32,000 nt of DNA from Candidatus Tremblayella phenacoccinincola (GCF_009805595.3 NZ_VMQO03000002.1:30001-62000); one strand, 5' to 3'. Shown: positions 1 to 32,000, numbered from the stretch's first letter. Program-made: numbers and translations. The notes: generated by a model from the sequence alone, not told the origin.

Positions 1-801
1 CTAATTAAAGGCTTATTTCTTGCTGGTCAAGTTAATGGTAGCACGGGTTACGAAGAAGCAGCAGGTCAAGGAATTATAGCAGGAATAAATGCTGCCAGAA
101 TGTGCTTTAATAAAGAAGCTTGGACACCTCGACGAGATCAAGCTTATTTAGGAGTATTATTAGATGACTTATGCACACAGGGAGTTGAAGAACCATATAG
201 AATATTTACTTCAAGGGCAGAATATAGACTAATATTACGAGAAGATAATGCAGACCTCAGGCTAACTGAAATAGGTCGGAAGCTAGGATTAATTAGTGAG
301 TCACATTGGAAAAGCTTTTGCGCAAAGGTTAATAATATAGAAGCTATACACCAAAAGCTAAAAGAAGCTTTCATCTATCCAAATACAAAAGCTAGTAACT
401 ATATAAATAAGCTTTTAGTAAACCCATTATTAAAAGAAACAAACTGTAAATGCTTACTAAAAAGACCAGCTATAAACTATAATATATTATTAACTTCAAA
501 AGGGTTTCCATATTTTGATGCAAAAGCTTTTAAAGAAGCTGAAATACAAATCAAATACTCTGGCTATATTGTACGTCAATATGAAGATGTTAAACGTAAC
601 ATAAGTAATGAACTAATAAAAGTACCTTATAATATTGAATATAATAATATCTCTGGTTTATCTAATGAAGTTACTGAAAAGCTAAAAAAGCATCACCCAT
701 CAACTATTGGCCAAGCTTCAAGAATAGCTGGCATTACACCTGTTGCCATTTCTATGCTTTTAATTTGGTTAAGGAAGAGCAATATGTTAAAACTACACTA
801 A
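1..801 (+). CDS. mnmG: tRNA uridine 5-carboxymethylaminomethyl modification enzyme MnmG (GidA), C-terminal 266 codons; 5' end outside window
   Basis: Frame 1 is open from base 1 (LIKGLFLAGQVNGSTGYEEAAGQG...) and runs into ORF 100..801. Motifs QAYLGVLLDDLCTQG, EPYRIFTSRAEYRLILREDNADLRLTEIGR, SGLSNEV and IGQASRIAGITP match MnmG; the DDLCT wording is as I recall for E. coli. Confidence 0.95.
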   Translation, partial: LIKGLFLAGQVNGSTGYEEAAGQGIIAGINAARMCFNKEAWTPRRDQAYLGVLLDDLCTQGVEEPYRIFTSRAEYRLILREDNADLRLTEIGRKLGLISESHWKSFCAKVNNIEAIHQKLKEAFIYPNTKASNYINKLLVNPLLKETNCKCLLKRPAINYNILLTSKGFPYFDAKAFKEAEIQIKYSGYIVRQYEDVKRNISNELIKVPYNIEYNNISGLSNEVTEKLKKHHPSTIGQASRIAGITPVAISMLLIWLRKSNMLKLH

Positions 802-851
802 TAATTAGAATTCATGAAGCATGTTGTTAAAGGCTGTCTAAGGTTCTTTTA

Positions 852-860
852 TGTTATAAT
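852..860 (+). promoter_or_regulatory. candidate extended -10 element (TGTTATAAT) 33 nt upstream of rlmE
   Basis: tgttataat read directly at 852-860, with no convincing -35. TATAAT-like strings are common by chance in DNA this AT-rich. Confidence 0.2.
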
Positions 861-892
861 GCTGCTTTTATAAGACCTATATAATAATACAT

Positions 893-1498
893 ATGAAACA
901 CCTAATTAAGACAAATAAAAGCATTGATTACTACACATTAAAAACAAATAAATTGGGTCTTCGTTCACGTGCTTGGTTTAAAATAGATGAAATACAAAAA
1001 GCTGTTAACTTATTAAAGCCAGGAATGTCAGTAGTTGAGCTTGGTTCAAACCCGGGTGGGTGGTCAGAATACGTCTTAGATAAAATAGGAAAACAAGGTT
1101 CAATCATAGCCTGTGATATTCTACCTATGAATAAACTAAAAGGAACATATTTTATACAAGGTAACTGCTTTGCTAAAAATACTCTAGAAATGCTATACCT
1201 AAAAACAAAAGGTTCCAAAGTTAATGTTATATTATCAGATATGGCTCCAGCTATTACGGGCATCTCTTCTATTGATATTCCTAACTCTATAGAACTTATA
1301 AAGCTATCTCTAAAAATATGTTTAGCTATTCTAAAACCAGGAGGTAGTCTTCTAGTAAAAGCTTTTCAAGGAGAAAGGTTTGCTAGTCTATATAATAAGC
1401 TAAGAACTATATTTAATAAGGTTAAGCTATGTAAACCAAAGGCTTCTCATTATTATTCAAGAGAGGTTTATGTTGTAGCTAAAGGACTAGCTGTATAG
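893..1498 (+). CDS. rlmE: 23S rRNA 2'-O-ribose U2552 methyltransferase RlmE (FtsJ)
   Basis: 201-aa ORF. GLRSRAWFKIDEIQ, KPGMSVVELGSNPGGWSEY, IIACDILPM, ILSDMAPAITG, LKPGGSLLVKAFQGE and SREVYVVAKG align along the whole length with E. coli RlmE as I recall it. Confidence 0.93.
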   Translation: MKHLIKTNKSIDYYTLKTNKLGLRSRAWFKIDEIQKAVNLLKPGMSVVELGSNPGGWSEYVLDKIGKQGSIIACDILPMNKLKGTYFIQGNCFAKNTLEMLYLKTKGSKVNVILSDMAPAITGISSIDIPNSIELIKLSLKICLAILKPGGSLLVKAFQGERFASLYNKLRTIFNKVKLCKPKASHYYSREVYVVAKGLAV

Positions 1499-1573
1499 GT
1501 TTATAGATACATTCTTTATTGTACTAAGGAACTGTTGTTAGAGACTCTAGAGGGAGAAGTACTTCTAGCATAT

Positions 1574-1656
1574 ACCGAGGTGGCGGAATAGGTAGTCGCG
1601 TTACTTTGAGGTGGTAATGCTTTATAAGCATACGGGTTCAAGCCCCGTCCTCGGTA
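1574..1656 (+). tRNA. leuU: tRNA-Leu (anticodon GAG), class II with long variable arm, no encoded CCA
   Basis: Hand fold: acceptor accgagg/cctcggt, D arm gcg..cgc, anticodon stem ttact/ggtaa with loop ttGAGgt, variable arm tgctttataagcat, T arm acggg-ttcaagc-cccgt, discriminator A. Very close to my memory of E. coli leuU. Followed by tta, not cca. Confidence 0.9.
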
Positions 1657-1684
1657 TTATATAATAAACATAATACACATCTAA

Positions 1685-1759
1685 AGCGGAGTGGAGCAGT
1701 TTTGGTAGCTCATCGGGCTCATAACCCGAAGGTCGTTGGTTCAACTCCAACCTCCGCAA
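1685..1759 (+). tRNA. metY: initiator tRNA-fMet (anticodon CAU), no encoded CCA
   Basis: agcggagtggagcag...tcgggctCATaacccgaaggtcgttggttcaactccaacctccgcaa. It has the three consecutive G:C pairs in the anticodon stem and an unpaired 1:72 position (A1 x A72), both typical of bacterial initiators. Near-identical core to E. coli tRNA-fMet. The metY symbol is only by position upstream of pnp. Confidence 0.9.
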
Positions 1760-1794
1760 CTACAGCTAACTTCCCTTCCTAGCTAGGAGCTCTT

Positions 1795-2003
1795 GGTTTA
1801 TTAGGAGAAGGTAGGAGAGGAGAGAGTTAACAGCTATAGCTATTAAAGAGCTTCTCTCTCCCCTCTCTTATATATACTTCTACTTCTAACTAACCTTCTC
1901 CTCTTCTCTCCTTTCCCTTTCCTTATTCTTATCCACCTTTCTCCTCTCCTTTCTCCCCCCAGGCTTCCCCCTCAACACATCCAAACATTCCTCTCCTTTC
2001 ATA
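1795..2003. repeat. C/T-rich low-complexity element, copy A
   Basis: A short purine arm (1803-1826, aggagaaggtaggagaggagagag) is followed by a ~150-nt polypyrimidine tract on the + strand (1851-2000) containing only about two G. Modules: tatatatac 1869-1877, ctaactaac 1886-1894, ccccccag 1955-1962, caacacatcc 1973-1982. Its composition contrasts sharply with the ~25% GC flanks. Confidence 0.8.
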
Positions 2004-2289
2004 CCGCTAACTATAGTTCCAATAGCTACAGCAGCTATAATAGATTCTAGAGACAGTATGTATGGTAGTTTAACACATATTAGGTTTATAGTTCTAGAAG
2101 GCTAGGTATTTAGAACGCAATAAGCCTTTTGTCTTTATTACTGAACATATAGAAAGTAACCAACCTTTTGTTTCTATTGGATCTGTATCTTTTGAGGCTA
2201 TATAGCTATGGTTTAAGGACATATTAGCTTTAGGTTTATTTAGCATATAATATAATAACTATTAACTAAACTGCACTAAGGATATTATA

Positions 2290-4404
2290 TTGTTAAACCC
2301 AACAAAACATAGCTTTAAATATGGTAAACATACTGTAACTATCGAAACCGGTGTAATAGCTAGACAGGCAGATACTTCAGCATTAGTTAATATGAACGAA
2401 ACAATCGTTTTAGTAACTGCTGTATATTCTAAACAAATAAAGCAACCTCAGGCTCTCTTTCCTTTAACTGTGAACTATCAAGAGCGAACATATGCAGCTG
2501 GTCGTATTCCAAGTGGTTTTTATAGAAGAGAAGGACGTCCTAGTGAATCTGAAATACTAATATCTCGCTTAATAGATAGACCTATTCGTCCTTTATTTCC
2601 AGATAGCTTCCTAAATGAAGTTCAAATATTTGCTACAGTATTATCTTTAAACCCTCAAGTTACTACTGATATAGTATCTTTAATAGGTGTGTCAGTAGTT
2701 CTTAGCTTATCAGAACTTCCATTTAATGGACCATTTGGAGTTGCAAGAGTTTGCTATGTTAATGACAAATATCTATTAAGTTCTGATATTACTGGCCAAA
2801 CAGCAAGCAGCTTAGACTTAATAGTTGTTGGTAGTTCTAATTCAATACTTATGGTCGAATCTCAAACAAAGCTTTTAAATGAACAACAAGTACTAGAGGC
2901 TATTCTATTTGGTTACAAAGAACAGCAAAAAGTAGTTAATAATATTAACGAACTAACTAAAAGACCATGTAATAAAAGCTGTATTCATAAAAACTATAGT
3001 TCTAATATAGAATACATATTCCTAAAAGCTAAAGTAACAAAACTAGCAGAACCTCGCATATTTGAAGCTTATCAAAATACAAACAAGAAGGAACGCTTTT
3101 CTTCAATAGAACTAATTAAGCTTGATATCTTAAATAGTATAACTGACTCTAGAATACCTAGTATAATTCTTAGCTTAGAAAGGAATATTATGAGTAGCTA
3201 TCTCTTAAAAAAAGGAATACGTATTGACGGTCGTAATAAAAAAGCTATTCGTAATTTAAACATTCGTATTGGCTTTTTACCTAGGACGCATGGATCTGCT
3301 TTATTTACTAGAGGAGAGACTCAAGCTTTAGTTACCGTTACTTTAGGGAATCAACGAAATGCTCAAAATGTAGACGAACTAAAAGGCGAACGCATAGATC
3401 GATTTCTTTTTCATTATAACTTTCCTCCGTTTTGTGTTGGAGAAGTTGGCATAATTGGTAGTCCAAAACGACGTGAGGTTGGTCATGGTTGGTTGGCAAA
3501 AAGGAGCTTACTACCTATTATACCTGAAGACAACATATTTCCATATACAGTTAGAATTGTATCAGAAATAACTGAGTCTAATGGGTCTTCTTCTATGGCT
3601 TCAGTATGCGGAGCATCCTTAGCTTTAATGGACGCAGGGGTTCCTATATGTTTTCCAATAGCTGGTATTTCTATAGGTCTAATAAAAGAAACCAATAACT
3701 ATTTATTACTCTCCGATATTATAGGTGATGAAGACCATTTAGGAGATATGGACTTAAAAGCTTCAGGTACAAAGGCTGGTATGACTGCTATTCAAATGGA
3801 TATAAAAATACAAGAGCCTGTATATAAAACCATTATAGACCTAGCCTTAAAACAAGCTAGATCTTCTATATATTTTATATTAGACATAATGAACAAATCT
3901 ATTAGCTCTTCTAGAAAAACTATAGGTAAATATGCTCCAAAGTTATACACAATCAATATAAGTCCTGATAAAATTAAAAGTGTTGTTGGAAAAGGAGGTT
4001 CAATAATAAAGTCTTTAATAGAAGAAACTAATACTAATATAGATATTTCAGATGCTGGCATGATTACTATATACTCTTCTAATGATAATATGGCGAACAT
4101 TGCCTTAAATAAAATAAAAGAAATTACTTCTGATATCAAAATAGGAAACACCTACTCAAGTAAAGTTATTCGTATTGTCGAGTTCGGAGTTTATGTTATA
4201 TATTGTGGTTATAAAGAAGGTTTAGTTCATATTTCACATATAGCTAATAGATATATATCTAAGGTTTCTGATCATTTAACCATAGGCCAAGAAGTACTAG
4301 TTAAAGTTCTAGACATAGATCGTTTTGGCAAAGTAAAGCTAAGCATAAAAGAAGCAAGTAACCCTGCAATAAGTAACATTTCTAATAAGCTTAAGCCTAA
4401 ATGA
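2290..4404 (+). CDS. pnp: polyribonucleotide nucleotidyltransferase (PNPase)
   Basis: 704-aa ORF starting at TTG. The N-terminus MLNPTKHSFKYGKHTVTIETGVIARQA...FPLTVNYQERTYAAGRIPSGFYRREGRPSE is close to E. coli PNPase. Two RNase PH-like halves, then KH (VVGKGGSIIKSLIEETN) and S1 (GLVHISHIANRYISKVSDHL..GQEVLVKVLDIDRFGKVKLS) domains. Stop is TGA. Confidence 0.97.
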   Translation: MLNPTKHSFKYGKHTVTIETGVIARQADTSALVNMNETIVLVTAVYSKQIKQPQALFPLTVNYQERTYAAGRIPSGFYRREGRPSESEILISRLIDRPIRPLFPDSFLNEVQIFATVLSLNPQVTTDIVSLIGVSVVLSLSELPFNGPFGVARVCYVNDKYLLSSDITGQTASSLDLIVVGSSNSILMVESQTKLLNEQQVLEAILFGYKEQQKVVNNINELTKRPCNKSCIHKNYSSNIEYIFLKAKVTKLAEPRIFEAYQNTNKKERFSSIELIKLDILNSITDSRIPSIILSLERNIMSSYLLKKGIRIDGRNKKAIRNLNIRIGFLPRTHGSALFTRGETQALVTVTLGNQRNAQNVDELKGERIDRFLFHYNFPPFCVGEVGIIGSPKRREVGHGWLAKRSLLPIIPEDNIFPYTVRIVSEITESNGSSSMASVCGASLALMDAGVPICFPIAGISIGLIKETNNYLLLSDIIGDEDHLGDMDLKASGTKAGMTAIQMDIKIQEPVYKTIIDLALKQARSSIYFILDIMNKSISSSRKTIGKYAPKLYTINISPDKIKSVVGKGGSIIKSLIEETNTNIDISDAGMITIYSSNDNMANIALNKIKEITSDIKIGNTYSSKVIRIVEFGVYVIYCGYKEGLVHISHIANRYISKVSDHLTIGQEVLVKVLDIDRFGKVKLSIKEASNPAISNISNKLKPK

Positions 4405-4432
4405 CGTTACAATAGGGGTTTCCTCAGAGTCT

Positions 4433-4515
4433 ACCGAAGTGGCGAAATGGGTAAACGCAGTTAACTCAAAGCTAACCACCTTGTAGGTTTATCGGTTCAA
4501 ATCCGATCTTCGGTA
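4433..4515 (+). tRNA. leuX: tRNA-Leu (anticodon CAA), class II, no encoded CCA
   Basis: accgaagtggcgaaatgggtaaacgcagttaaCTCAAAGctaac... Acceptor accgaag/cttcggt, anticodon loop ctCAAag, long variable arm, T arm atcgg-ttcaaat-ccgat, discriminator A. The 5' half is close to my memory of E. coli leuX. One A-C mismatch closes the anticodon stem. Confidence 0.85.
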
Positions 4516-4602
4516 GTTCTTAACATACACCCCCTATTGAATATACAATTGCTGTTAAATATAAAGACATTATAGAGAATACAAAAGCGAATAAACTCTC
4601 CT

Positions 4603-5184
4603 ATGAAATATAACATACTTCCTAAAAGCTACAATAAAGTTCATATCATTGGTGGAAAGCTTAAAAAAGCTAAACTAAATATAAGCAATGACTACAACTT
4701 AAGACCTACTTCTAATAGAGTTAGAAAAGCTATTTTTAGTTGGTTAGATCCCTTAGCAAAAGGTTATTATTGTTTAGACTGCTTTGCTGGAAGTGGTGTT
4801 TTAGGAATAGAAGCTATCTCAAGATATTCGTTAAATGTTACATTCTTGGAAATAAACAATAACTTCTTCAATAGTTTGATAAAAAACATAAATAGGCTAA
4901 AGCTAAATAATATAAGCTTAGTTAATATAAATGCTTTAGAATGGTTAAATAATATTAACAAACCTAAACCTTTTGATCTAGTTTTCATTGATCCTCCATT
5001 TTTCAGAGGAATGATAGCTAAAACCATAAACCTACTAGAAAGCCTTAATTACTTATCTCATAAGTCTATAATATACATAGAGTCTGAAATAGGTCAATCA
5101 AACTATAAAGTTCCCAAAAGCTGGTTAATATACAAAGCTAAAGACTCAAATAATCTATCATATAAACTGTATATAAGAAGCTAA
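4603..5184 (+). CDS. rsmD: 16S rRNA (guanine966-N2)-methyltransferase RsmD
   Basis: 193-aa ORF. IIGGKLKKAKL, LRPTSNRVRKAIFSWL, CLDCFAGSGVLGIEAISRY, FDLVFIDPPF and IIYIESE are collinear with E. coli RsmD (CLDCFAGSGALGLEALSRY, VFVDPPF, LIYVESE). Confidence 0.9.
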   Translation: MKYNILPKSYNKVHIIGGKLKKAKLNISNDYNLRPTSNRVRKAIFSWLDPLAKGYYCLDCFAGSGVLGIEAISRYSLNVTFLEINNNFFNSLIKNINRLKLNNISLVNINALEWLNNINKPKPFDLVFIDPPFFRGMIAKTINLLESLNYLSHKSIIYIESEIGQSNYKVPKSWLIYKAKDSNNLSYKLYIRS

Positions 5185-5211
5185 GGCTCCCGCATTCTGC
5201 TAGATTAGTGA

Positions 5212-5724
5212 CTACATTAAACAGCTAGTCTTATTCAATATTATATTATAGGGTTTTTTATTAACGTTAATTATCTTATTAAGCACCTTAAGATACAGCT
5301 TATTTCTTTCTTTTATTACAGAATCTAATATCTTATATAGGCTTATCCTAATAACTAATGTTAAAGGTCTTTGTTTAGCTACTACCCTTTTAGATTGTTC
5401 TTTAATACCTATCTTAACCCATAAGACAATATTAGAATCTAATAGGCTCTTACATATATCTATATGGACAACAGATCCACCTCCAGTAGCTAATATAATG
5501 TTAGTTTTTATTAGCATAGTTCCAATTAGGCTTTCTTCTTTTATTCTAAATGATAGTTCTCCCTCTAAATAATAAGTTAAGTCAATAGATGCTTTATATT
5601 TAGCTTCTACTTTTATATCTGAATCAATATAAAACAGGTTTAGATGTCTAGCTAAGAAGTTACCTATCGTAGTTTTTCCAGAACCCATTAAACCTACTAA
5701 AGCTATGCTTATTATTTCTTTCAT
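5212..5724 (-). CDS. aroK: shikimate kinase
   Basis: 170-aa ORF. It has the Walker A motif LVGLMGSGKTTIG, DSD, FR..E and ILATGGGSV, with the length of AroK. Confidence 0.88.
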   Translation of the reverse strand: MKEIISIALVGLMGSGKTTIGNFLARHLNLFYIDSDIKVEAKYKASIDLTYYLEGELSFRIKEESLIGTMLIKTNIILATGGGSVVHIDICKSLLDSNIVLWVKIGIKEQSKRVVAKQRPLTLVIRISLYKILDSVIKERNKLYLKVLNKIINVNKKPYNIILNKTSCLM

Positions 5725-5837
5725 TTAGCTATATAGTGTTTATCTAATAAAGAAGTCTAAAAGAGCTAAAGAAGCTAGTATTTAGGAACATTCTAGGTTT
5801 AACTACTAGCTACTCTACTTTTAAATGCTTTAGGTTT

Positions 5838-5858
5838 AGGTGAAGAGGAGAGGGAGAG
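5838..5858. repeat. short inverted copy of the C/T-rich element core (purine-rich on + strand)
   Basis: aggtgaagaggagagggagag followed by ttaggg. It parallels aggtaggagaggagagag-ttaac at 1809-1831. The reverse complement reads cctaactctccctctcctcttc, i.e. a CTAACT core plus a CT run as in copies A-C. The TAA of the core is the tsaB stop codon. Confidence 0.6.
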
Positions 5859-6587
5859 TTAGGGCCCTTTGTTCTTTGAGGTTAAAATATAACTAATACA
5901 ATATTCCTTCCTATAGATATCAAATACGTATTTTGGAGAAACTTGCTCAGATGATAGCTTTTCACCTTTGATAGCTTTATGAATACCTATTGGTAACATA
6001 CTTTTAGCTGTTAATAATATGGGCTTTTTTATAGTTATAGTTCTTAGTTCAAGGTTATCATCCAAATAAAACAATAAGTCAATATTACTAACTATTACAT
6101 ATTCTTTATATTGTTCTAGTTCTATAGATAGTTTCTTAAAGATGAGTCTAAGTCTATTTGGGTTAGTTCTTCTAAACCAGGTTATTAAACCAATATTGGG
6201 TTTATGGTAGTTTGTTAGATATGCTTCTTCATTAGCTTTTATAACTAATAGTATTTTGGGTTTAACAGAGAACCAGGGTTGAACAACAGCTTCTAATGTA
6301 GATATGTTAACTAAGGGTAGGTTTGTATAGATAGATAAGCCTTGAGATAAAGATATTCCTATCCGTATGCCAGTGTAGCTACCATAATTATTACTAAAAG
6401 AAAGGTATTTAATATCAGTTAATGAAAGGCCTACTTCTAACAAAGCGCTATCTATAATAGGTATAGCTAAATGAGGTTGTTTATATGGGGCTTTTGATAG
6501 GTATTCACTAATTATAACATTATTAATGGATAATGCGACAGAACAGAATATATTAGTTGTGTTAATAGCTAATAGACGTATATGCAA
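5859..6587 (-). CDS. tsaB: tRNA N6-threonylcarbamoyladenosine synthesis protein TsaB (YeaZ)
   Basis: 242-aa ORF. IRLLAINTT...CSVAL and GSYTGIRIGISLSQGLSIYTNLPLVNISTLEAV align with E. coli TsaB ([46 protein letters not shown]). The ORF-track start is a TTG, so the true start is uncertain. Confidence 0.82.
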   Translation of the reverse strand: MHIRLLAINTTNIFCSVALSINNVIISEYLSKAPYKQPHLAIPIIDSALLEVGLSLTDIKYLSFSNNYGSYTGIRIGISLSQGLSIYTNLPLVNISTLEAVVQPWFSVKPKILLVIKANEEAYLTNYHKPNIGLITWFRRTNPNRLRLIFKKLSIELEQYKEYVIVSNIDLLFYLDDNLELRTITIKKPILLTAKSMLPIGIHKAIKGEKLSSEQVSPKYVFDIYRKEYCISYILTSKNKGP

Positions 6588-6675
6588 GGGAGAAGAACCG
6601 TAAATACAGTTAAGTTAGTAGTTGGTTCTTGGTTCTGCTAATACTTTAGTATATGGTTTAGGTTAGACATAAGCT

Positions 6676-6912
6676 TTCCCCCCAGTTAAGACCAACACAT
6701 CATAACACAGATTCAAAGAGCTATCCTCTCCTTCCCCCATATATACCTACCGCATCTGTCTCATACTCTGGTTTTAATCCTTCAACAGCTTATTGATTAA
6801 CCGGACAACCAGTAGGTCTTTCCCCCTTTCTAGTTCATATTATTAACACTTCCTCCTTCTCCTTAAACACTAACTAACCCCCTCCCCCCCCCTTCCTTCC
6901 TTTCCTTTAGTC
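6676..6912. repeat. C/T-rich low-complexity element, copy B, filling the spacer at the compositional switch and running into the 3' end of rpsU
   Basis: Modules read directly: ccccccag 6678-6685, caacacatc 6693-6701, atatatac 6739-6746, ctaactaac 6870-6878, C9 homopolymer 6884-6892. The densest polypyrimidine part is 6851-6910. Confidence 0.8.
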
Positions 6913-7097
6913 TCAACCACCCTCCTGAAATACTTCTTTGCTGATGATGCTTTCTTTCTTTTCCGTTCAGAGGTTGGCTTTTCATAAAATAACCTAGAAC
7001 GCACTTCACTTAGTAAACCGCTACGCTCAACCATCCTCTTGAACCGACGTATGGCTATTTCAAATGGTTCGGCTTCTTTAATAAAAACAATACACAT
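6870..7097 (-). CDS. rpsU: 30S ribosomal protein S21 with an atypical Gly/Glu-rich C-terminal tail
   Basis: 75-aa [48 protein letters not shown] matches S21. AGGAG lies 5 nt upstream of the ATG (ctcct at 7103-7107). The last ~12 codons ([12 protein letters not shown]) are encoded by element copy B. Confidence 0.9.
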
Positions 7098-7212: not shown

Positions 7213-7370
7213 ACCTCTCCTTCCTTCTCTTTAAGTTCTAACTAAGAACTCCCCCTCTCAACACTCTCTCCTCTCTCCCTTCCTTTTTCCTATCTCTATA
7301 TATACCTCTCAAACGTACCTCCACATCATTCCTCCTCCTCCTCCCCCCCCCTACCCCCAAACGCTAGAAG
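7213..7370. repeat. C/T-rich low-complexity element, copy C (rpsU-aroB spacer)
   Basis: Modules: ctaactaag 7238-7246, ccccctctcaacac 7251-7264, tatatatac 7297-7305, cacatcattcctcc about 7322-7334, (CCT)4 7331-7342, C9 homopolymer 7343-7351. Confidence 0.8.
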
Positions 7371-7435
7371 ACCCATAATATCTTATCCTCACTACCATTC
7401 AAGCCTTCAAGTAACAACCTAAACCTAGGAACAAC

Positions 7436-8530
7436 TTAGGAACAACAAACCCCAACACTTCGACTTGTCAATAAAAGCTTTTCCAATGAAGAAGCGCTCA
7501 TTGTTAATATTAATGCTTGTCCTAAGTCTTTAACTAAAACAATGTTGCAGGAACGCACCAAAGAGTTAGTATTCTTCTTATCAACACTAATAGTTTTTAG
7601 GTAAGTCTCTACTTTCAACCCACTAGGCACAGATATAGGCAAACGACAGATGGATAACAAACGTATCAACCTACGCTGAACACTTAAATCAATTAACCCT
7701 AATCTAAAAGAGATGTCAGAAGCAATCACCATTCCACAGCTAACTGCCTCTCCATGTAACCACTTTTGATACGAAAGGTAAGATTCTATTGCATGTCCAA
7801 AAGTATGTCCAAAGTTTAAAACAGAACGCACACCAGCTTCTCGAGAATCTGTTGCTGTTACGTTTAACTTAAGCAAGCAAGCATGTTTAATCATGCTTAT
7901 TACAACACTCAGTTTACGCTTCAATATCTTAAACATCATTTTCTCAAGCCATTTAAAAAAGTCCCCATCAAGCGCAACACTTATCTTAATAATCTCTGAC
8001 AAGCCTGAGTGCCATTCTCGTTGAGATAAAGAGCTTAGGTTCGAAATATCTAATATTACTCTGTCTGGCAAATGTATTGTCCCAACAAGGTTCTTTCCAA
8101 GTGCGGTGTTCAGTCCATTCTTTCCTCCAAAAGCTGAGTCTACTTGAGCTAAAAGAGTTGTTGGGATGTGTATTAATTTAACACTTCGCATATAGCAGGA
8201 TGCAATAAACCCCGAAATGTCACCAACCACTCCACCTCCAAAAGAAGCAACCTTCGAGTCTCTGCTTAGTTCCTCATACAAAAGAACTTTGAGTATACCG
8301 ATGAAAAACCTTAACCGCTTATAACGTTCTCCAATTCCAATAATGACCTTTGTTACTTTAAGACTATTCTTATTTCTTTTGAAGCTTCGTAATCGCTTGA
8401 GCCTACATAAACTAGCAACTGAACTATTAGTGATTAGCACCAAGCTCTTGATGTTTTCATACGCTATAAAATCCCAATGCTTCTGAGACTGCATGCCTAC
8501 ATATCGAATGTTTCTTTTAGAAAAGCTCAT
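7436..8530 (-). CDS. aroB: 3-dehydroquinate synthase
   Basis: 364-aa ORF. GERYKRL, FGGGVVGDISGFIASCYMRSVKLIHIPTTLLAQVDSAFGGKNGLN, LGKNLVGTIHLP, SGLSEIIK, LNFGHTFGHAIE and WLHGEAVSCGMV are the AroB motifs in the right order. Confidence 0.9.
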   Translation of the reverse strand: MSFSKRNIRYVGMQSQKHWDFIAYENIKSLVLITNSSVASLCRLKRLRSFKRNKNSLKVTKVIIGIGERYKRLRFFIGILKVLLYEELSRDSKVASFGGGVVGDISGFIASCYMRSVKLIHIPTTLLAQVDSAFGGKNGLNTALGKNLVGTIHLPDRVILDISNLSSLSQREWHSGLSEIIKISVALDGDFFKWLEKMMFKILKRKLSVVISMIKHACLLKLNVTATDSREAGVRSVLNFGHTFGHAIESYLSYQKWLHGEAVSCGMVIASDISFRLGLIDLSVQRRLIRLLSICRLPISVPSGLKVETYLKTISVDKKNTNSLVRSCNIVLVKDLGQALILTMSASSLEKLLLTSRSVGVCCS

Positions 8531-8572
8531 AACAGGCTTTAGGTTGGTTTGTTATTGAAAGAAGAATGTTAA

Positions 8573-8587
8573 GTGAGAACTTCTCAC
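8573..8587 (-). terminator. weak hairpin downstream of rplQ / upstream of aroB (possible terminator or attenuator)
   Basis: gtgagaacttctcac is a 6-bp stem with a 3-nt loop, followed on the - strand by a moderately U-rich stretch (uuaacauucuucuuuc). It sits in the only sizeable spacer (8531-8672) to the right of 7436. The stem is short, so this is weak. Confidence 0.2.
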
Positions 8588-8672
8588 TAAATAATATGTA
8601 CACAAGAATGGGTTTCGGAATGTTGAGTTATTTAATGAGGTTTGGTGTGGTGTACTGGCATCTAGGCAGTTA

Positions 8673-9023
8673 TCATATTAGCTCCACCATACTAACAACT
8701 GCTTTATCACCTTTGCGTATGTGTGATTTAATAATGTGGCAGTAACCTCCCTTTGTTTGAAGATACCTGGGTCCTAGAATGTTAAAGACTTTCCTAACGC
8801 ATCTTTCATTATTTAATTGTTCCATCACTGACCTAATGTTAGCTACTGTTTTCTTTTTGCCTTGAGTAATTATTGGTTCAATGATTTTCCTAAGGCTTTT
8901 TGCTTTTACAAAACAAGTGCATATACGTTCCCTTGTTATAAGCGAATGTGCTAAGCTTTTAAACATCGATTGCCTATGGCTGCTCTTTCTATTCAGTTTT
9001 TTTAAGGATAGGTTGTGTTTCAT
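8673..9023 (-). CDS. rplQ: 50S ribosomal protein L17
   Basis: 116-aa ORF. LNRKSSHRQSMF, IIEPIIT, LGPRY and GGYCHIIK match L17. It is the last gene of an alpha-operon arrangement. Stop is TGA. Confidence 0.93.
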   Translation of the reverse strand: MKHNLSLKKLNRKSSHRQSMFKSLAHSLITRERICTCFVKAKSLRKIIEPIITQGKKKTVANIRSVMEQLNNERCVRKVFNILGPRYLQTKGGYCHIIKSHIRKGDKAVVSMVELI

Positions 9024-9024
9024 C

Positions 9025-9696: not shown

Positions 9697-10291
9697 TGAT
9701 TAGTCTTTCGTTTAGCTCTATTGGAATCTCTTTGCGTGTTGGCTTTTGTTTAAATGTTCCTTCCATTTTAAAATGATCTACATTCAACCAACATGGAACT
9801 TTCTGATGTATCCTGATGGCATTTGTTATTCTGAGTTGGGTTTTTGACTTATCGTGGATTTTAATTGAATCTGCTGGCTTAACTAAAAATGAAGGAATGT
9901 TCACTACTCTGTTGTTTACCAAGATGGACCTATGTGCTATTAGTTGACGTGCTTCAGCTCTTGTTACACTAAAACCCATTCTGTACACAATATTGTCTAA
10001 CCTAGCTTCTAAAGTCTGTAGTAGAAGGGTTCCTATTTCAGAATTAGCTTTATAAACACTTCGTAGATAAATTAGGAACTGCCTTTCTGTAATTCCATAG
10101 ATTCGTTTAGCTTTTTGCTTTTCACGGAGTTGAATTCCATAGTTGGATACCTTCAGTACATGCTTACTCTGTTGTCCTGGTTTAGTTCTAGACTTACACT
10201 TCTCCTCAAACGAACGAATACCACTTTTTAGGAAGAGGTCACAGCCTTCTCTTCTGGAAAGCTTTTGTTTAGGTCCTATATATTTAGACAT
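9677..10291 (-). CDS. rpsD: 30S ribosomal protein S4
   Basis: 204 aa. YIGPKQKLSRREGCDLFLKSG, QLREKQKAKRIYG, LEARLDNIVYRMGF..TRAEARQLIAH, KMEGTF and IIELY match S4 throughout. Confidence 0.96.
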   Translation of the reverse strand: MSKYIGPKQKLSRREGCDLFLKSGIRSFEEKCKSRTKPGQQSKHVLKVSNYGIQLREKQKAKRIYGITERQFLIYLRSVYKANSEIGTLLLQTLEARLDNIVYRMGFSVTRAEARQLIAHRSILVNNRVVNIPSFLVKPADSIKIHDKSKTQLRITNAIRIHQKVPCWLNVDHFKMEGTFKQKPTRKEIPIELNERLIIELYGC

Positions 10292-24408: not shown

Positions 24409-24417
24409 CTAATATAG

Positions 24418-24885
24418 CTAGGTCTTAAAATGACTGAAAGCCTTGTTGACTTCTGCTAACTTATGCATTTCATCTCGGTATTTTATAGCAGTACCTTTTT
24501 TGTTTAGCGCATCCATTAGTTCCTTGTATAGTTTTAAGCTCATTGTTTTTTCACTCCGAATGGTTGCTGCTGCCTTAATCCATCGTAAGGCTAAAGTTGT
24601 TCTTCTGGTGTGTTTGACTTCTACTGGAATACGATAGTTAGCCCCTCCAACTCTTTTACTTTTAACTTCAACTAATGGTTTAATGTTTTCTAAAGCTTGA
24701 AGAAAGAGCTCTAAAGACTTCTCCTGTCTAGGATGTAACATACTCAAGGTTGAATAAACTATGTTCTCTGCTTTCGGTTTCTTTCCAGACTTCATTATCA
24801 CGTTTATGAGTTTTGATATTTCTAAGCATCTATATTTAAAATCTGTGCAGGGTTGAGCTTTATAGGTTTTCTTTTTTCTAGGCAT
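24418..24885 (-). CDS. rpsG: 30S ribosomal protein S7
   Basis: 155 aa. GKKPKAENIVY, VEVKSKRVGGANYRIPVEV and RRTTLALRW match S7. Confidence 0.96.
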   Translation of the reverse strand: MPRKKKTYKAQPCTDFKYRCLEISKLINVIMKSGKKPKAENIVYSTLSMLHPRQEKSLELFLQALENIKPLVEVKSKRVGGANYRIPVEVKHTRRTTLALRWIKAAATIRSEKTMSLKLYKELMDALNKKGTAIKYRDEMHKLAEVNKAFSHFKT

Positions 24886-24901
24886 GTGGGTTTAGTTATG
24901 G

Positions 24902-25276
24902 TTAAGGATTATTCTTCTTTGTCCCATATTTAGAACGTGACCTTTTCCTATCTTTAACGCCCTTTGAATCTAAGTTTCCTCTAATTATATGATAACGAAC
25001 TCCTGGTAAATCTTTAACACGTCCACCTCTAATTAAAACCATTGAATGCTCTTGGAGATTATGTCCTTCTCCACCGATATAAGATATTACTTCAGGACCA
25101 TTAACAAGCTTTACTTTTGCGACCTTTCTTAAAGCAGAGTTTGGCTTTTTGGGCGTAGTGGTATACACTTTAGTACACACACCTCTTTTCTGTGGCGAAC
25201 CTTGTAATGCTGGACTTTTGCTTTTTTTCTTATACGAGCTTCTACCGTTTCTGACTAATTGGTTTATCGTTGGCAT
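24902..25276 (-). CDS. rpsL: 30S ribosomal protein S12
   Basis: 124 aa. [75 protein letters not shown] matches S12. Confidence 0.98.
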
Positions 25277-25281
25277 ATTCG

Positions 25282-28200
25282 TTAGTGGGTTTCCTTTTTG
25301 TATTTATGATAGATATAACCTGTTCCAGCTGGCACCAACCTACCTACTATAACATTTTCTTTAAGACCTAATAAGTAATCTTGTTCTCCAATACTTGCTG
25401 CTTTGGCTAATACTCTTGTAGTCTCTTGAAAAGAAGCAGCGGATATAAAAGACTCTGTAGATAAAGAAGACTTAGTTATTCCTTGAAGAACGTATTCATA
25501 GTTTATTATATTGTGTCCGATGCTCAATAGTTCTTTGTTTCCTTGAACTATTCTTGATCTTTCAACCTGTTCACCAATATAGAATGAAGAACAGCCTTTG
25601 GAGATAACCCTAACAAACCTTAGCATTTGTTTTACAATGACCTCTATGTGTTTGCTGTTTATGTTCACTCCTTGTGTTTGATATATGCTTTGTATTTCAG
25701 CAGAAATGGAGACCAGCAATACTTCAGACCCAAGGGCTTTTAAAACTACAAAGGGGTTTATTGAGCCATCAGTCAATGAATCACCTTTTTTAACATACTG
25801 TCCATCTTGAACTGTAATTCGATTCTCAGAGTTGAATGATAATATTTCAGCTTTTGTGTTATTAGTGTTAATATTGGTAATGACGGCCTTTAGGACAACA
25901 GTTGAATCAGCTTTAACGGAAACAAACCCTGGAACCGTAGTAAGCACTTTTGTGTCCTTTTGTACTCTTGTTTCAAAAGTGTCAGTAATACGCATCAAGC
26001 CACCTGTTATGTCTCTGTTCTTTTTAGCGTTAAATGGAACATAAGCTACAACCTGTCCAGCCGCTACATATTGTTCGTCCTCCGATATAACAATGGTCCC
26101 TGGTAACAATAATAGCTTCCTTGAATAACCGTTTGGATTGAGTATTTCAAGTGAAGGTCTTTTTGGTCCCTTTGTATTCTTTATTATATATATAGGCTTT
26201 GTCTTTCGAGTCTTAGTGGTTTGGGTCTGAACTGCTTCATTATCCACAAAATATCTAAGCTTAACCAAACCATCGAACTCTGCAATGAGTGGTTTATTAA
26301 ATTGATCCCATGTGTATATAACGTCCTTTCGATCCACATATTCGAGCTCTTTGAAAAATACCACAGAACCATACGGAACATAGAAATTACGTTGCACTTC
26401 CTTGTTTCTGGTTAGAATTATCAGCTTACCTGTCTTAGATATAGCCAACCTTTCCTGAGATCTATTCGACGCTAGTCTAAGCGAACAATGCAGATATATA
26501 ACACCTTTGCTTTCAGCTTTAACGTTCGACCAAGTTTCATATGAAGCCATCCCCCCAACATGAAAAGTTCGCATTGTCAGCTGAGTGCCAGGTTCGCCTA
26601 TAGATTGAGCAGCAACAACCCCTACTGCCTCCCCAACACTAATAGGAATTCCAGAGCTTACATCACATCCATAGCACATAGCACACAGACCATTCCTTGT
26701 ATTACAAGTTAGTGGAGAGCGAATGTGGAATGTTTCAATGTTGGGTTCCATTAAGGTTTCTAACGTAGCCTGCTCAATAAGAGTTCCAGCATCGCATATT
26801 ACTTCTCCGGTTGTTGTCTTAATTCCAGAAGAGCAGAACCTACCAAGAGACCATTTTGATACAAAACCTAACTCATGTTTGTTCTTTAAGGTGTTCAGAG
26901 CATTGATACCAGTGTTCGAACCGCAATCCCATTCTGTAACTACAATCTTCTGAGCTACATCAACTAGCCTGCGTGTTAAATAGCCTGAGTTAGCTGTTTT
27001 AAGCGCTGTGTCGGTTAATCCTTTTCTGGCACCGTGTGTAGATATGAAGTACTGTAATGTGGTTAACCCTTCTCGAAAGTTTGCAGTAATTGGAGTTTCA
27101 AGGATTGAACCGTCTGGTTTTACCATTAATCCTCTCATTCCTGTTATTTGTTTTATTTGATCTGTTGAGCCTCTAGAACCTGAGTTAACCATGGCGTATA
27201 TTGGGTTTGGTTTGTTTGTTTTAGATAGCTCAACCATCAATGAGTTCTTTACATATTCTGAAGCTTTGGACCATATTTCCATTAGGCTATTATAGCGTTC
27301 TAGTTGAGTTGTTAGTCTGTTATTGTATTGCGATTCCTGGACTTCAACCGCACCCCAAGCGCTTAACGTTATCCCATCTTTCTCTTTTGGTGTAAGCATG
27401 TCCTCAATGCTAATTGATATGCCAGATATGGTTGCTATGTTAAAACCACATTGCATCAGCTGTTCAATAAAGTTAATGGTGGTCTGTTTAAAGCTCCTGC
27501 GGATAGCCGTTTGAACAATGCCTGCTACTTCTTTCGTTCTTAAAGTCCTGTTTAGCCTATCGAACAAAATGTTTGCAGGTAGAAGTTTGGAGAGTATGGA
27601 TCTACCGACTGTTGTGGACCAAGCTTTAAAGAAGCTTTCGAGAAGTCCTCTGTGTTTTATGGTTTCCCTAATTCTAATTCTAATGTAGCAGCCTAGTCCC
27701 ATAATATCTTTAGCTTGAACATATATAGCTTCGTTGACATCGGAAAGAGGCATTTCTTTTCTAGAAACATTCTTAAGTAGCATTGAACATACGTATAAGC
27801 CTAAAACCATATCTTGAGCAGGTAGTATTATAGGACGTCCATTTGATACTGATGTAAGATTGTTGACTGGAGTGATGAGATGTTTAGCTTCCAATTGAGA
27901 TTCCAGTGATAACGGCACATGAACTGCCATCTGATCTCCATCGAAGTCTGCATTAAAAGCAGAGCATACGAGTGGGTTAAGTTGAATTGCATGACCTTCT
28001 ACTAAAACTGGTTCGAGTGCTTGAATACTAAATCGATGTAGGGTTGGTGCTCGATTCAGGAGAACATAACGACCCCGGGTTGCTTCATCCAATGCTTTCC
28101 AAGTTGCTAAGGTCCTGTTGTCAACTTCCTTCCTTGCAGCTTTGACATTTGCTGTTAGCCCGAGCCTTCCCAGAACCCCGAAGATAAATGGTTTGAACAA

Positions 28201-29343
28201 CTCTACGGCCATTGCTTTTGGTATTCCACATTGGCGCATTTTAAGGTTAGGTTCTACTGTTATTACTGAACGGCCAGAATAATCAACACGCTTACCTAAT
28301 AGATTCTGACGAAACCGACCAGCTTTTCCTCTCAGTAATTCAGACAAAGATTTTAAAGGCTTCTTGTTCGTGCCAAGTGTTGGGTTGCTTTTCCTGTTGT
28401 TATCAATTAAAGCATCAACCGATTCCTGAAGTATACGTTTCTCATTCTTTAGCATTATTTCAGGAGCTTTTAACTCTATTAACTTCCGCAGGCGGTTGTT
28501 TCTGTTTATTACCTTTTTGTATAACTCATTCAGGTCAGAAGTTACAAGCTTGTTTCCATCCAGAGGTATAATTGGTCTGAGGTCAGGTGGCAGAATTGGG
28601 AGAACACTAAGAACCATCCATTCAGGTTTAACGTTTAGCTTTTTAAATGCCGCTAAGGTTCTCAAGCGGCTCAACATAGGTTTCGTTTTAAACTGTTGGT
28701 GATGGGTTTCACTTGCAATGGCTTCTCTAATATTACTCATTTCTGATTCTATATCTATTAATCGTAGTAATTTCTTAACACCTTCAGGACCAGTTTCAGC
28801 TTTAAAGAAACCACTATGAAGCTTTGTTCTGTATTGAAATTCTTCTTCTGAAATGACTGAGCCTAACTTCAAAGAACTACTGCCAGGCTCAGTGACAATG
28901 TAAGCGTTCAAATATATTACTTTCTCAGCATCATTTGCTGTTACGTTAAGAATAGAACTTAGGTTAGAAGGAGATGACTTTAGGAACCACATATGGAAAA
29001 CAGGAACAACAAGTTCTATATGTCCTAACCTTTCTCTTCGAGTTTTTGATAGAGTTACTTCAACCCCACACTTCTCACATATTATTCCTCTGTATTTAAA
29101 ATAGCGATACCTACCACACATACATTCGTAGCTTTTAATGGGACCAAAGACCTTACAACAAAACAGACCTTCATATTCAGGCTTCAGGGTACGATAGTTG
29201 ATGGTGTCAGACGTTTTAACTTCTCCAAATGACCATGCTCTTATTTTGCTAGGAGACGCTAGACTGATTCTAACGGATTCAAACGTTTTATCATTCTCGA
29301 CTTGATATAGTGATTTTAAAAGGAATTGTTCAATGCTATTCAT
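25282..29343 (-). CDS. rpoC: DNA-directed RNA polymerase subunit beta'
   Basis: 1353 aa. It has the zinc-finger region [25 protein letters not shown], the catalytic motif [12 protein letters not shown], and the C-terminal [17 protein letters not shown]. Only 5 nt separate it from rpsL and 2 nt from rpoB. Confidence 0.98.
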
Positions 29344-29345
29344 GG

Positions 29346-32000
29346 TTAATCTCCAACATCCAACAGAACACCAAGTGATCTAATTTCCCTTAGCAAAACG
29401 TTAAAAGACTCAGGAACACTAGTTCTTAAGATGAAGCTGTCCTTAATGATGTTCTCATACATTTTAATTCTACCCCAAATGTCATCAGATTTAATGGTTA
29501 ACATCTCATGCAAAGTATAAGCTGCTCCATAGGCTTCCAGTGCCCAAACTTCCATCTCTCCAAACCTTTGACCTCCGAACTGGGCCTTTCCACCTAATGG
29601 TTGTTGAGTTATTATAGAATATGTGCCAGTAGACCTAGCATGCATTTTGTCTTCGGCTAGATGATGAAGCTTAAAGTAATACATGGTCCCAACGGTTGCT
29701 GGATATTTGAACCGCTTCCCTGTTACTCCATCAATTAGGAACAGTTGGTTCTTAGCTTGTGTGGTGTCTAACATGTAGGCTGTTTTCAATGGAAAAGCGG
29801 TTTCTGAAGTACGCTGAATGTCTTCTTCGTTGGTTCCGTTAAATATTGGAGTGTCACAAGGAATGCCATTTGTCAAAAGCTTCGCAGTTCTCAAAATGTC
29901 ACTGGCTACTAAGTTACTAATATTCTTACATTCTTTAGCTGAGTTAAAGATATGATATAGAACATCTCTAAGTGCAGAAGGCATTTTAATAGAGCTTTTC
30001 TTCAAGACTAAGTTGATGCGCGTTCCTGTGGATTTAGATGTTAGGCCTAAGTGAGTTTCAAACACTTGTCCAACGTTCATCCTAGAAGGCACTCCTAGAG
30101 GATTAAGAATTATATCAACAGCACGACCATCTTTTGTGTATGGCATATCTCTTACTGGAACAACTTTAGAAACCACACCTTTATTTCCATGCCTCCCTGC
30201 CATCTTGTCTCCAGGTTGGAGCGTACGTTTCGTCGCAAGTAATACTTTTACAACTTTTATAACCCCAGGTGAAAGAGCATAAACACCTGACGCTTTCTCA
30301 GTCTTTCTTCTCAGAACCAAATACAGGTCCGTTCTAGCATGTTCCATGATTGAGCGCTTTTCTTTGAATGTTATGTGGCACAAACTGTTGTTGGTCTCCA
30401 TTGTTAACCATACGTACGGGTCTATGGCTTGGAGTATTTCTACCTTTAGACTGCAACTACAGTTAATGAGAAGCCTCCCAATATATGAAAAGCTGTCTTG
30501 TTCAATGGTATGTATTTTGTCTCTCAGCTTGCCATTGAACATACTATGATGTTTGCTGTTGTGGTTAGTTGTAGTCTTTGCTTTGAAGGTTTGAGTGCTT
30601 ATAACAGTACCTTGAACACTTGGAGGAACACGAAGAGAAATGTCTCTAACCTCAGGTGCTTTCTCACTAAAAATGGCATTCATAAGCTTTTCTTCAGCTG
30701 TTAGAATTGCTGTTTCTTTAGGAATCACTTTACCAACCAGAATATCTCCAGCTTCAACTTGAGAACCAGCTCGTATTATGCCTTCATTGTCCAACTTATT
30801 CAACAGTGAATCTGAAAACCCAGGTATTGCATTGGTGGTTCTTTCTTTTCCAAACTTTGTGGCTTTTACGGTGACTGCGAATTCTTCAAGATGAACCGAA
30901 GTAAATATGTCTTTACCAACCAAGGTTTCTGACACTATAACTGAATCTTCGAAGTTATAGCCTTTCCAAACCATAAAAGCTACTAATATATTCTTACCCA
31001 AGGCCAGCTCACCTTTGCATGTTGAGGTACCATCTGCAATAACTTCACCTTTAGCTACTTTGAAACCATAGATAGCTGTAGGTCTAAAACTAGTGTAGGT
31101 GTTCTGATTTGTTCTCTCAGCCTTGACCAGCGTATGTATCTCAATGTGGCTGCTTTCAGAGTTTATGGTTGGTAAAGACCTGATAATAATTCTAGTTGAA
31201 TCCGCAAAGGCTATCACACCAGCTTCTTTAGCAACAACACAGGCTTTTGCGTCAATGGCTACAGGTTTCTCCGTTCCAGTGCCAATCAATGGACTTCTGG
31301 GGAGAATACAAGGAACTGCTTGGCGTTGCATGTTAGAACCCATTAGTGCTCTGTTTGCGTCGTCGTGCTCTAAAAAAGGAATCAATGAAGTGGCAACTGA
31401 TACTGTTTGTAGCGAACTAGCATCTATATACTGAACGTCAGCAAGCTTAGCTAGAGTTATGCCCTGTGTTCTTCTGGCTAATACTTTGCTATGGTTTCTT
31501 TGATCCAAAGAAGTTATTGTGAAACTCTCTTCTTCAGAAGCTGTTAGGAATTGAACACTTTTACTTATTCTTTCAGACGTTACCCTTCGATACGGAGCTT
31601 GCAAAAACCCATGTTCGTTCACTTGGGCATGGACAGCTAGAGAACTTATTAAGCCTATGTTCTGGCCCTCTGGGGTTTCAACCGGACAAACTTTGCCATA
31701 ATAGGTTGGATGTACGTCTCTAACCTCAAACCCTGCATGTTCTTTAGTTATTCCGCTTATGCCTATAGAAGTCAGACGTCTTTTATGAGTGACTTCGGAC
31801 AAAGGGTTAATTTGGTCCAAAAGCTGGGATAAGTGAGACGAAGCAAAGAAATCATTGAAAGCTTTGCATATTGGTCTGTAGTTTATGTTAGCAAAGGAAA
31901 GGTCACTATTGTTCTTGCAGTTATCTATAATGTTTTTGATTGCTTGTTCAACCGCTAAGAAGTTATTCCTGAACAAACTCTCTAATATTTCACCTACACA
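29346..32000 (-). CDS. rpoB: DNA-directed RNA polymerase subunit beta, C-terminal ~884 codons; 5' end outside window
   Basis: The reading frame stays open to base 32000; the M at 31976 in the ORF track is a TTG Leu codon inside the gene. LSQLLDQINPLSEVTHKRRLTSIG, GFEVRDVHPTYYGKVCPVETPEGQNIGLI, NMQRQAVP and GDKMAGRHGNKGVVSK match RpoB. Confidence 0.98.
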   Translation of the reverse strand, partial: CVGEILESLFRNNFLAVEQAIKNIIDNCKNNSDLSFANINYRPICKAFNDFFASSHLSQLLDQINPLSEVTHKRRLTSIGISGITKEHAGFEVRDVHPTYYGKVCPVETPEGQNIGLISSLAVHAQVNEHGFLQAPYRRVTSERISKSVQFLTASEEESFTITSLDQRNHSKVLARRTQGITLAKLADVQYIDASSLQTVSVATSLIPFLEHDDANRALMGSNMQRQAVPCILPRSPLIGTGTEKPVAIDAKACVVAKEAGVIAFADSTRIIIRSLPTINSESSHIEIHTLVKAERTNQNTYTSFRPTAIYGFKVAKGEVIADGTSTCKGELALGKNILVAFMVWKGYNFEDSVIVSETLVGKDIFTSVHLEEFAVTVKATKFGKERTTNAIPGFSDSLLNKLDNEGIIRAGSQVEAGDILVGKVIPKETAILTAEEKLMNAIFSEKAPEVRDISLRVPPSVQGTVISTQTFKAKTTTNHNSKHHSMFNGKLRDKIHTIEQDSFSYIGRLLINCSCSLKVEILQAIDPYVWLTMETNNSLCHITFKEKRSIMEHARTDLYLVLRRKTEKASGVYALSPGVIKVVKVLLATKRTLQPGDKMAGRHGNKGVVSKVVPVRDMPYTKDGRAVDIILNPLGVPSRMNVGQVFETHLGLTSKSTGTRINLVLKKSSIKMPSALRDVLYHIFNSAKECKNISNLVASDILRTAKLLTNGIPCDTPIFNGTNEEDIQRTSETAFPLKTAYMLDTTQAKNQLFLIDGVTGKRFKYPATVGTMYYFKLHHLAEDKMHARSTGTYSIITQQPLGGKAQFGGQRFGEMEVWALEAYGAAYTLHEMLTIKSDDIWGRIKMYENIIKDSFILRTSVPESFNVLLREIRSLGVLLDVGD

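Follow-up and report, generated by a model that had tools for sequence, protein, structure and literature searches.

How does one stretch of bacterial DNA come to read like one class of Proteobacteria on its left side and like another on its right? The question is raised by a window of 32,000 nucleotides (the whole stretch analysed; GCF_009805595.3, NZ_VMQO03000002.1:30001-62000, recorded as Candidatus Tremblayella phenacoccinincola), in which a first-pass annotation, made from the sequence alone, had seen a gamma-like left block (1-6587) and a beta-like right block (6870-32000). The answer we arrive at is that the window is very probably a piece of the fused beta/gamma genome of the mealybug endosymbiont Candidatus Tremblaya phenacola, formed by an ancestral merger that was followed by gene loss. 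That two bacterial genomes of different classes fuse into a single replicon is rare and, as an evolutionary event, striking. Such a fusion was described for strain PPER (Gil et al., ISME J 2018, as summarised in PMC5664097) and for strain PSOL (Bai et al., ISME J 2024, PMC11014885), and it is already published for these very genes; the present work confirms it and adds local detail only.

Two further genomes are compared with the window throughout: GCA_002682985.1 (MKGN01), a sister genome that is probably that of strain PPER, and CP003982.1, that of PAVE, a beta relative that is not chimeric. In the published table of Tremblaya genomes PSOL has 7 contigs and a G+C content of 34.8%, PPER has 23 contigs and 35.6%, and PAVE is complete with 42.2%. 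The contig numbers 19 and 22 of the sister genome fit a total of 23 contigs, hence its probable attribution to PPER.

The two blocks differ in composition. In 1-kb windows the G+C content is 0.29-0.33 over positions 1-6500, the tRNA-rich stretch excepted, and 0.35-0.41 beyond 7000. The G+C content at third codon positions (GC3) is 0.18-0.24 in the six genes of the left block (mean 0.205) and 0.26-0.43 in the 31 genes of the right block (mean 0.332), the ranges not overlapping (Mann-Whitney p = 9e-7), and at 4-fold degenerate sites the G+C content is 0.12 on the left and 0.25 on the right. The single best change point lies near 6700 and was matched in none of 1000 permutations, which bears out the abrupt compositional switch that had been noticed near 6.6-6.9 kb; the six hand counts of G+C per 60 nucleotides given with that claim all proved exact. 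The left-block proteins are indeed loaded with Asn, Lys and Ile: together with Phe and Tyr these make up 35.9% of the residues on the left versus 28.5% on the right. Each gene set thus has its own signature of G+C content and codon usage, as expected of a chimera of the PPER/PSOL type.

Protein conservation had been named beforehand as a possible source of the GC3 difference. The step persists when conservation is considered. Within the right block GC3 drops with rising conservation (rho = -0.58), and pnp has a GC3 of 0.18 at 55% identity to E. coli whereas rplB has 0.325 at 56%, so that conservation does not account for the step; the weakly conserved aroB has a GC3 of 0.337 versus the 0.18 of the well-conserved pnp.

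The chief gamma marker is pnp (2290-4404, plus strand), encoding PNPase, which begins with TTG, ends with TGA and is labelled gamma in PSOL (peg121, PMC11014885). Among its relatives in the GTDB species representatives the best 80 of 567 are all from classical gammaproteobacteria, the top one from Serratia symbiotica with 56% identity. In a bootstrapped distance tree (500 replicates) with P0259 from Burkholderiaceae as single beta reference, the window protein and its sister fall inside the clade of Enterobacterales, Pasteurellales and Alteromonadales in 499 of the 500 replicates, join E. coli and Serratia in 344 and join the beta reference in none. At the discriminating sites, where E. coli and Serratia are identical and P0259 is different, the window PNPase goes with the gamma residue 54 times and with the beta residue 11 times (p = 6e-8). 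The first-pass annotation had called PNPase E. coli-like, and all three comparisons agree with it. RlmE, the 23S rRNA U2552 methyltransferase (rlmE, 893-1498, plus strand, GC3 0.193), also called E. coli-like, has 50% identity to its E. coli counterpart. The block also encodes RsmD, the 16S rRNA G966 methyltransferase (rsmD, 4603-5184, plus strand), whose reported motif is present in the window sequence. RsmD has 77% identity to the sister orthologue, which is encoded on a gamma contig, and is published as gamma in PSOL (peg122).

Gene order points the same way. In E. coli the genes rlmE-ftsH-folP-glmM-secG-leuU-(yhbX, argG)-metY-rimP-nusA-infB-rbfA-truB-rpsO-pnp lie on a single strand, argG excepted. 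The window retains, in E. coli order and orientation, rlmE, a tRNA-Leu(GAG) (1573-1657, plus strand), an initiator-type tRNA-Met(CAT) (1685-1760, plus strand) and pnp, and the distance from rlmE to pnp, about 20 kb in the E. coli-type order, is 3.5 kb in the window. Both tRNAs were found with ARAGORN and with Rfam. The former aligns closely with leuU and has an E. coli-like relative position and strand, and the latter has the GGG/CCC anticodon stem of metY and a mismatched 1:72 pair. For these two the earlier statement that all three tRNAs of the block resemble their E. coli counterparts is supported by alignment and gene order; the third, a tRNA-Leu(CAA) (4432-4516, plus strand), was found by the same two means, the comparison with E. 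coli covering the other two. The left block looks like a stretch of an enterobacterial chromosome that has been collapsed by deletions, which argues for the integration of a large chromosome segment. On the PNPase results together with the E. coli gene order, its ancestry is gammaproteobacterial (Enterobacterales), the comparison with beta references having covered PNPase and AroK.

The right block tells a different story. The alpha, spc, S10 and str operons lie contiguously at 8673-25276 on the minus strand in the order rplQ-rpoA-rpsD-rpsK-rpsM-rpmJ-infA-secY-rplO-rpmD-rpsE-...-rpsJ-tuf-fusA-rpsG-rpsL, which is that of PAVE and Burkholderia and not that of E. coli; we assign them to the beta (Tremblaya) side. 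On its upstream side rpsL is adjoined by rpoC (25282-29343, minus strand), a beta-type linkage, and beyond it lies the 3' part of rpoB (29346-32000, minus strand), which runs past the right edge of the window; the RpoB encoded on a near-identical Logan contig has 1342 amino acids. In Burkholderia rpoB-rpoC are likewise linked to rpsL-rpsG-fusA-tuf-rpsJ, recQ alone intervening, and the linkage secY-infA-rpmJ is common to the window and PAVE. In E. coli the upstream neighbour of rpsL is tusB and not rpoC, rpsJ and tufA are 17 kb apart with other genes in between, and secY is not followed by infA. The first-pass annotation had singled out these two gene orders as foreign to E. coli, and the comparison with Burkholderia and PAVE agrees.

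The proteins encoded by the right block lean the same way. In 17 of the 18 comparable genes Burkholderia scores above E. coli, the remaining one being a tie. Over positions where the Burkholderia and E. coli references differ, the window goes with Burkholderia 473 times and with E. coli 291 times (p = 5e-11), and 19 of 21 genes lean beta, among them rpoC (100 versus 61) and the rpoB part (46 versus 39). EF-Tu had been said to carry betaproteobacterial wording; the three motifs given for it are indeed present in the window and in Burkholderia and absent from E. coli. The named matches of EF-G are all from Burkholderiaceae (about 65% identity). For AroB (aroB, encoding 3-dehydroquinate synthase, 7436-8530, minus strand; 81% identical to its sister orthologue and 46% to the PAVE protein) the top named match beyond the two chimeric genomes is PAVE, the others coming mainly from Burkholderiales, mostly Oxalobacteraceae. 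By these scores, sites and linkages the right block is of betaproteobacterial (Tremblaya/Burkholderiales) ancestry, and the PNPase distance tree, the site counts and the synteny speak against a nesting of both blocks in one class.

Where do the blocks meet? The annotation had them joined in a low-complexity spacer. The join exists, and the rest of this claim needs revision. The gene rpsU, encoding S21 (6870-7097, minus strand; GC3 0.395; peg125 in PSOL, published as beta), lies within the supposed spacer and is the first gene of the beta block; the last of the gamma block is tsaB (5859-6587, minus strand; peg124, published as gamma), whose product has 62% identity to the sister orthologue. The true junction is therefore 6588-6869, an exact location that is part of the local detail added here. 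The low-complexity sequence is a pyrimidine-rich tract at 6874-6918, into which the 3' end of rpsU enters. Since such tracts also occur within both blocks, at 1883-1973 in the gamma block and at 7248-7303 and 7318-7358 in the beta block (G+C content of the tracts 0.45-0.68), they characterise the spacers in general and do not mark a join.

The junction is found in a second lineage. Contig 22 of the sister genome carries pnp, rsmD, aroK and tsaB in the order of the window, and its first 343 bp are exactly the last 343 bp (11482-11824) of contig 19, the contig with aroB and rpsU, adjacent to each other as in the window. It follows that on contig 22 alone the beta gene rpsU (3' end), the spacer and the gamma gene tsaB stand in succession. 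Within the spacer, positions 6628-6717 are conserved: they align over 92 bp with 82.6% identity to the ends of both sister contigs, and further blocks are conserved as well. Orthology of the spacer between the two lineages speaks for a single ancestral fusion and against a misassembly, and judged from these contigs the junction is real and was inherited from a common ancestor. At the level of assemblies both gene sets are on one DNA molecule in the window, in a 63,038-bp NCBI contig that encodes both AroB and TsaB, and in sister contig 22.

The conserved spacer segment of about 90 bp at 6628-6717 is as well conserved as coding sequence, the adjoining spacer is not alignable, and Rfam gives no match. 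A scan of the junction spacer for promoters and terminators returned signals at chance level. The C/T-rich tracts differ in length and sequence from those of the 98.7%-identical isolate of Logan run SRR13503347, and short-read contigs break at them; homopolymer sequencing errors are possible.

How close are the relatives? AroB is 100% identical to KAH0998239.1/WP_159128916.1 of Candidatus Tremblaya phenacola, and TsaB is 100% identical to an NCBI protein of the same organism, encoded on the same 63,038-bp contig as the AroB match. The sister genome GCA_002682985.1 has 82-85% DNA identity to the window (81% for AroB and 62% for TsaB), and its GC3 is 0.335 in the beta genes and 0.236 in the gamma genes, so that it has the GC step as well. 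At 4-fold degenerate sites the window and the sister genome have diverged by 0.21 in the beta genes and by 0.24 in the gamma genes, and this near-equal divergence of both blocks fits one fused genome that was passed to both lineages. Contigs of Logan run SRR13503347 have 98.7% DNA identity to the window (over 22191-32000 and 7326-18532) and one of SRR24008594 has 87%. The difference of 1.3% is fairly high within a species for a vertically inherited symbiont, unless it is partly due to sequencing error.

The gene order of the window had in effect been published with PSOL. Its genes peg121 to peg160 follow one another as in the window (pnp, rsmD, aroK, tsaB, rpsU, aroB, peg127 at the place of rplQ, rpoA ... 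rpsG, rpsL, rpoC, rpoB), with PNPase (peg121), RsmD (peg122), aroK (peg123) and TsaB (peg124) labelled gamma and rpsU (peg125), aroB (peg126), rpoA (peg128), many ribosomal proteins from peg130 to peg158, rpoC (peg159) and rpoB (peg160) labelled beta (PMC11014885). Since the numbering reproduces the order of the window exactly, the finding is correct and already known. The published labels agree with ours, those of rpsC and rpsD excepted; both genomes have a low G+C content and both bear the same NCBI species name. PSOL and the window were compared by gene order and labels, and the 63-kb NCBI contig may stem from an earlier assembly derived from P. solenopsis.

PPER, with GCA_002682985.1 as its genome, shares with the window the order pnp-rsmD-aroK-tsaB, the adjacency of aroB and rpsU, the rpsU/tsaB junction, the orthologous spacer and the GC3 step; its DNA identity to the window is 82-85%, which makes it a sister lineage and not the same organism. 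Its assembly is broken at the junction, where rpsU is maybe repeated. The first-pass annotation had said that the window behaves as the PPER collage would, and the 100% matches of AroB and TsaB to T. phenacola, the order of PSOL and the shared junction are all in keeping with this. The same annotation had also considered that, were the organism a different one, this might be an independent case. That idea has to be given up: because the rpsU/tsaB junction with its orthologous spacer is common to the sister lineage, and the order in PSOL is the same, there was one ancestral event, which is already described.

PAVE has the ribosomal operon order of the window, the linkage secY-infA-rpmJ, a short RpoA (about 223 amino acids) and aroB in the vicinity of rplQ, and like the window it has no rplX. 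Its proteins have just 37-72% identity to those of the window and its GC3 is higher (0.372). Unlike the window it has no gamma block there and has kept a beta aroK and a his operon beside aroB: its local order is rplQ-aroK-aroB-hisG-hisB-hisH-hisA-hisF-hisIE, that of the window rplQ-aroB-rpsU and then the gamma block. PAVE has the ancestral local order; in the chimeric lineage the aroK and the his operon of beta origin are gone from this place. In agreement with the latter loss, histidine synthesis uses gamma genes (PMC11014885, PMC5664097).

The window does contain a shikimate kinase gene, aroK (5212-5724, minus strand; peg123, published as gamma), the retained gamma copy. Its product scores 106 bits with E. 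coli, 79-101 bits with the AroKB proteins of betaproteobacteria and 33 bits with the AroK of PAVE; by these scores it is clearly not an AroK of the PAVE-type Tremblaya. We suggest that the retained gamma aroK functionally replaces the lost beta aroK. Since the window lacks the aroK and his genes of beta origin and has kept an aroK that is not of Tremblaya type, losses are locally complementary and redundancy is low, the genome-wide picture being that of the literature; the loss of beta aroK and his is a local example of how redundancy was resolved.

A comparable division of labour is known from consortia of Tremblaya princeps with a gammaproteobacterium such as Moranella endobia, in which a beta Tremblaya and a Sodalis-allied gamma partner also split the genes for translation and amino acid pathways (PMC11014885, PMC5664097). 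There the two genomes reside in separate, nested cells, whereas in the window the two gene sets are on one DNA molecule.

From these comparisons the following history is proposed. Positions 1-6587 would derive from an enterobacterial, reportedly Sodalis-allied, co-symbiont and positions 6870-32000 from a betaproteobacterial Tremblaya ancestor, the chromosomes of the two partners having become one before PSOL and PPER diverged. After the merger, rearrangement and deletion of redundant or dispensable genes would have set in, by which the beta aroK and his operon were lost and the gamma aroK was kept, and by which on the gamma side some 20 kb of E. coli-type sequence from rlmE to pnp shrank to 3.5 kb. 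Amelioration being slow on the time scale concerned, the blocks would have retained their original base composition and codon usage, and the retained compositions would produce the abrupt GC step. The comparisons themselves demonstrate the class affinity of each block, the shared junction, the co-divergence of the blocks and the complementary losses; for whole-genome fusion as the mechanism, as for the Sodalis affiliation, we draw on the literature or infer it.

Slow amelioration has a competitor, in which each block would be kept at an equilibrium base composition of its own, for instance through mutation or repair that differs between regions. In the two descendant genomes, which have diverged by 21-24% at 4-fold degenerate sites, the G+C content of these sites is practically equal: 0.24 and 0.22 in the beta genes and 0.12 and 0.135 in the gamma genes; changes between strong and weak bases are without net direction (71 versus 54, and 16 versus 22), and strong-weak differences between the two genomes amount to about 0.12-0.13 per 4-fold site. 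As a rough estimate, about 20% of the GC gap might be expected to have closed since the lineages split, and with an expectation this small slow amelioration and active maintenance both fit the data. We regard active maintenance as unlikely.

Several points weigh against reading the window as part of a fused T. phenacola genome. AroK taken alone is not diagnostic of class (106 bits versus 79-101). The trees were built from distances on a small set of taxa and have long branches, and the Sodalis-allied placement of the gamma part comes solely from the literature (PMC11014885, PMC5664097). The window most likely belongs to strain PSOL of Phenacoccus solenopsis, an assignment that we infer. The short-read contigs of Logan run SRR13503347 and contig 19 of MKGN both break off at the tract that adjoins rpsU, and the physical continuity of the two blocks therefore rests on assemblies. 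Finally, in PPER rpsU is tagged TPPER_00001 and aroB TPPER_00183, tags from which the rpsU region is possibly repeated in the sister genome, so that aroB-rpsU-tsaB may be one among several arrangements there. The rpsU region may be a repeat that stands at several PPER contig ends and is perhaps a substrate of recombination.

The contig ends beside rpsU are also what speaks for an assembly chimera, in which a Tremblaya and a separate, co-resident gammaproteobacterium were misjoined at the low-complexity tract; the independent run and the sister genome stop at the same place. An artefact of this kind should be absent from independent assemblies and lineages, but rpsU, an orthologous spacer and tsaB are present on a single contig of another lineage, independently assembled and with 82-85% DNA identity, and the same gene order is published for PSOL, the assembly of which is an Illumina and PacBio hybrid (PMC11014885). 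The two blocks, moreover, hardly differ in synonymous divergence (0.21 and 0.24), the gene content is complementary and not redundant, and no repeat that could have misled an assembler was found in the window: the repeats found by a search of the window are short and at chance level, and none is at the junction or flanks the gamma block. We consider a misjoin very improbable.

Just as improbable, in our estimate, is an ordinary horizontal transfer, by which a small gamma island would have entered the Tremblaya chromosome. The window contains at least 6.6 kb of gamma DNA, which taken alone is compatible with an island as well as with a fused genome. A mobile island should bring integrase, transposase or conjugation genes and flanking direct repeats; however, the gamma block of the window has no integrase, no insertion sequence element and no flanking repeat, and its open reading frames are all those of housekeeping genes. 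It consists of housekeeping genes and tRNAs from some 20 kb of enterobacterial core chromosome that collapsed by deletion, and 45-46% of the genes in PSOL and PPER are of gamma origin genome-wide (PMC11014885, PMC5664097).

There is next to no room for a single-lineage genome whose GC step results from expression, conservation or strand, since, although the right block consists mostly of highly expressed ribosomal genes on one strand, the correlation of GC3 with conservation has the wrong sign, aroB exceeds pnp in GC3, and phylogeny and synteny put the two blocks into different classes.

Some further features of the window complete the description. At the left edge lies the 3' part of mnmG (1-801, plus strand; GC3 0.197; gamma block), which runs past the edge of the window; frame 1 of positions 1-102 is open and reads LFLAGQVNGSTGYEEAAGQG. 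A scan of the window with Rfam yielded the three tRNAs and nothing further. The 529-bp gap between tRNA-Met and pnp (1761-2289), which includes the pyrimidine-rich tract 1883-1973, is at the place of E. coli rimP through rpsO; rpsO adjoins pnp in E. coli, and a search of the gap for an rpsO open reading frame showed that none is left. TGA had been read as a stop on both sides and is one: it terminates pnp on the left and rplQ and six further genes on the right. A recoding of TGA was considered and rejected, the genes of the window being without internal stops.

In PSOL rpsC and rpsD are labelled gamma despite their location in the beta operons (Table S5, PMC11014885). In the window the sites of rpsC (17116-17763) lean beta by 24 to 15, at odds with the published label, and RpsD (9677-10291), compared with two references, has 53% identity to the E. 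coli protein and 46% to that of PAVE. The published gamma labels of both genes are probably long-branch noise; replacement of the genes in place is a possible alternative.

The gene rplX encodes L24, and both Burkholderia and E. coli have it between rplN and rplE. It is missing there in the window (at 15895), in the sister genome (contig 19, 2343-3307) and in PAVE (stretch 1773-2728), which looks like a gene loss common to Tremblaya phenacola and is a further tie of the right block to PAVE. At the position of rpmC (L29) there is an open reading frame (16494-16721, minus strand) of 75 amino acids that overlaps rpsQ by 16 bp and for whose counterparts on related contigs Pfam gives no match; it may encode a highly degenerate L29.

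RpsU (6870-7097, minus strand) has 75 amino acids, with a C-terminal tail rich in Gly, Glu and Lys that runs into the low-complexity tract, and the sister protein has 60; the additional residues may be genuine or may reflect an erroneous homopolymer length in the deposited sequence. RpoA (9025-9696, minus strand) has 223 amino acids versus 329 in E. coli (PAVE 223, sister 220), and its C-terminal domain appears to be missing. SecY (11433-12581, minus strand), with 382 amino acids versus 443 in E. coli, is strongly diverged: just a stretch of 68 amino acids aligns to the E. coli protein, with 25% identity, and the identity to the sister protein is 61%, far below that of the adjacent ribosomal proteins.

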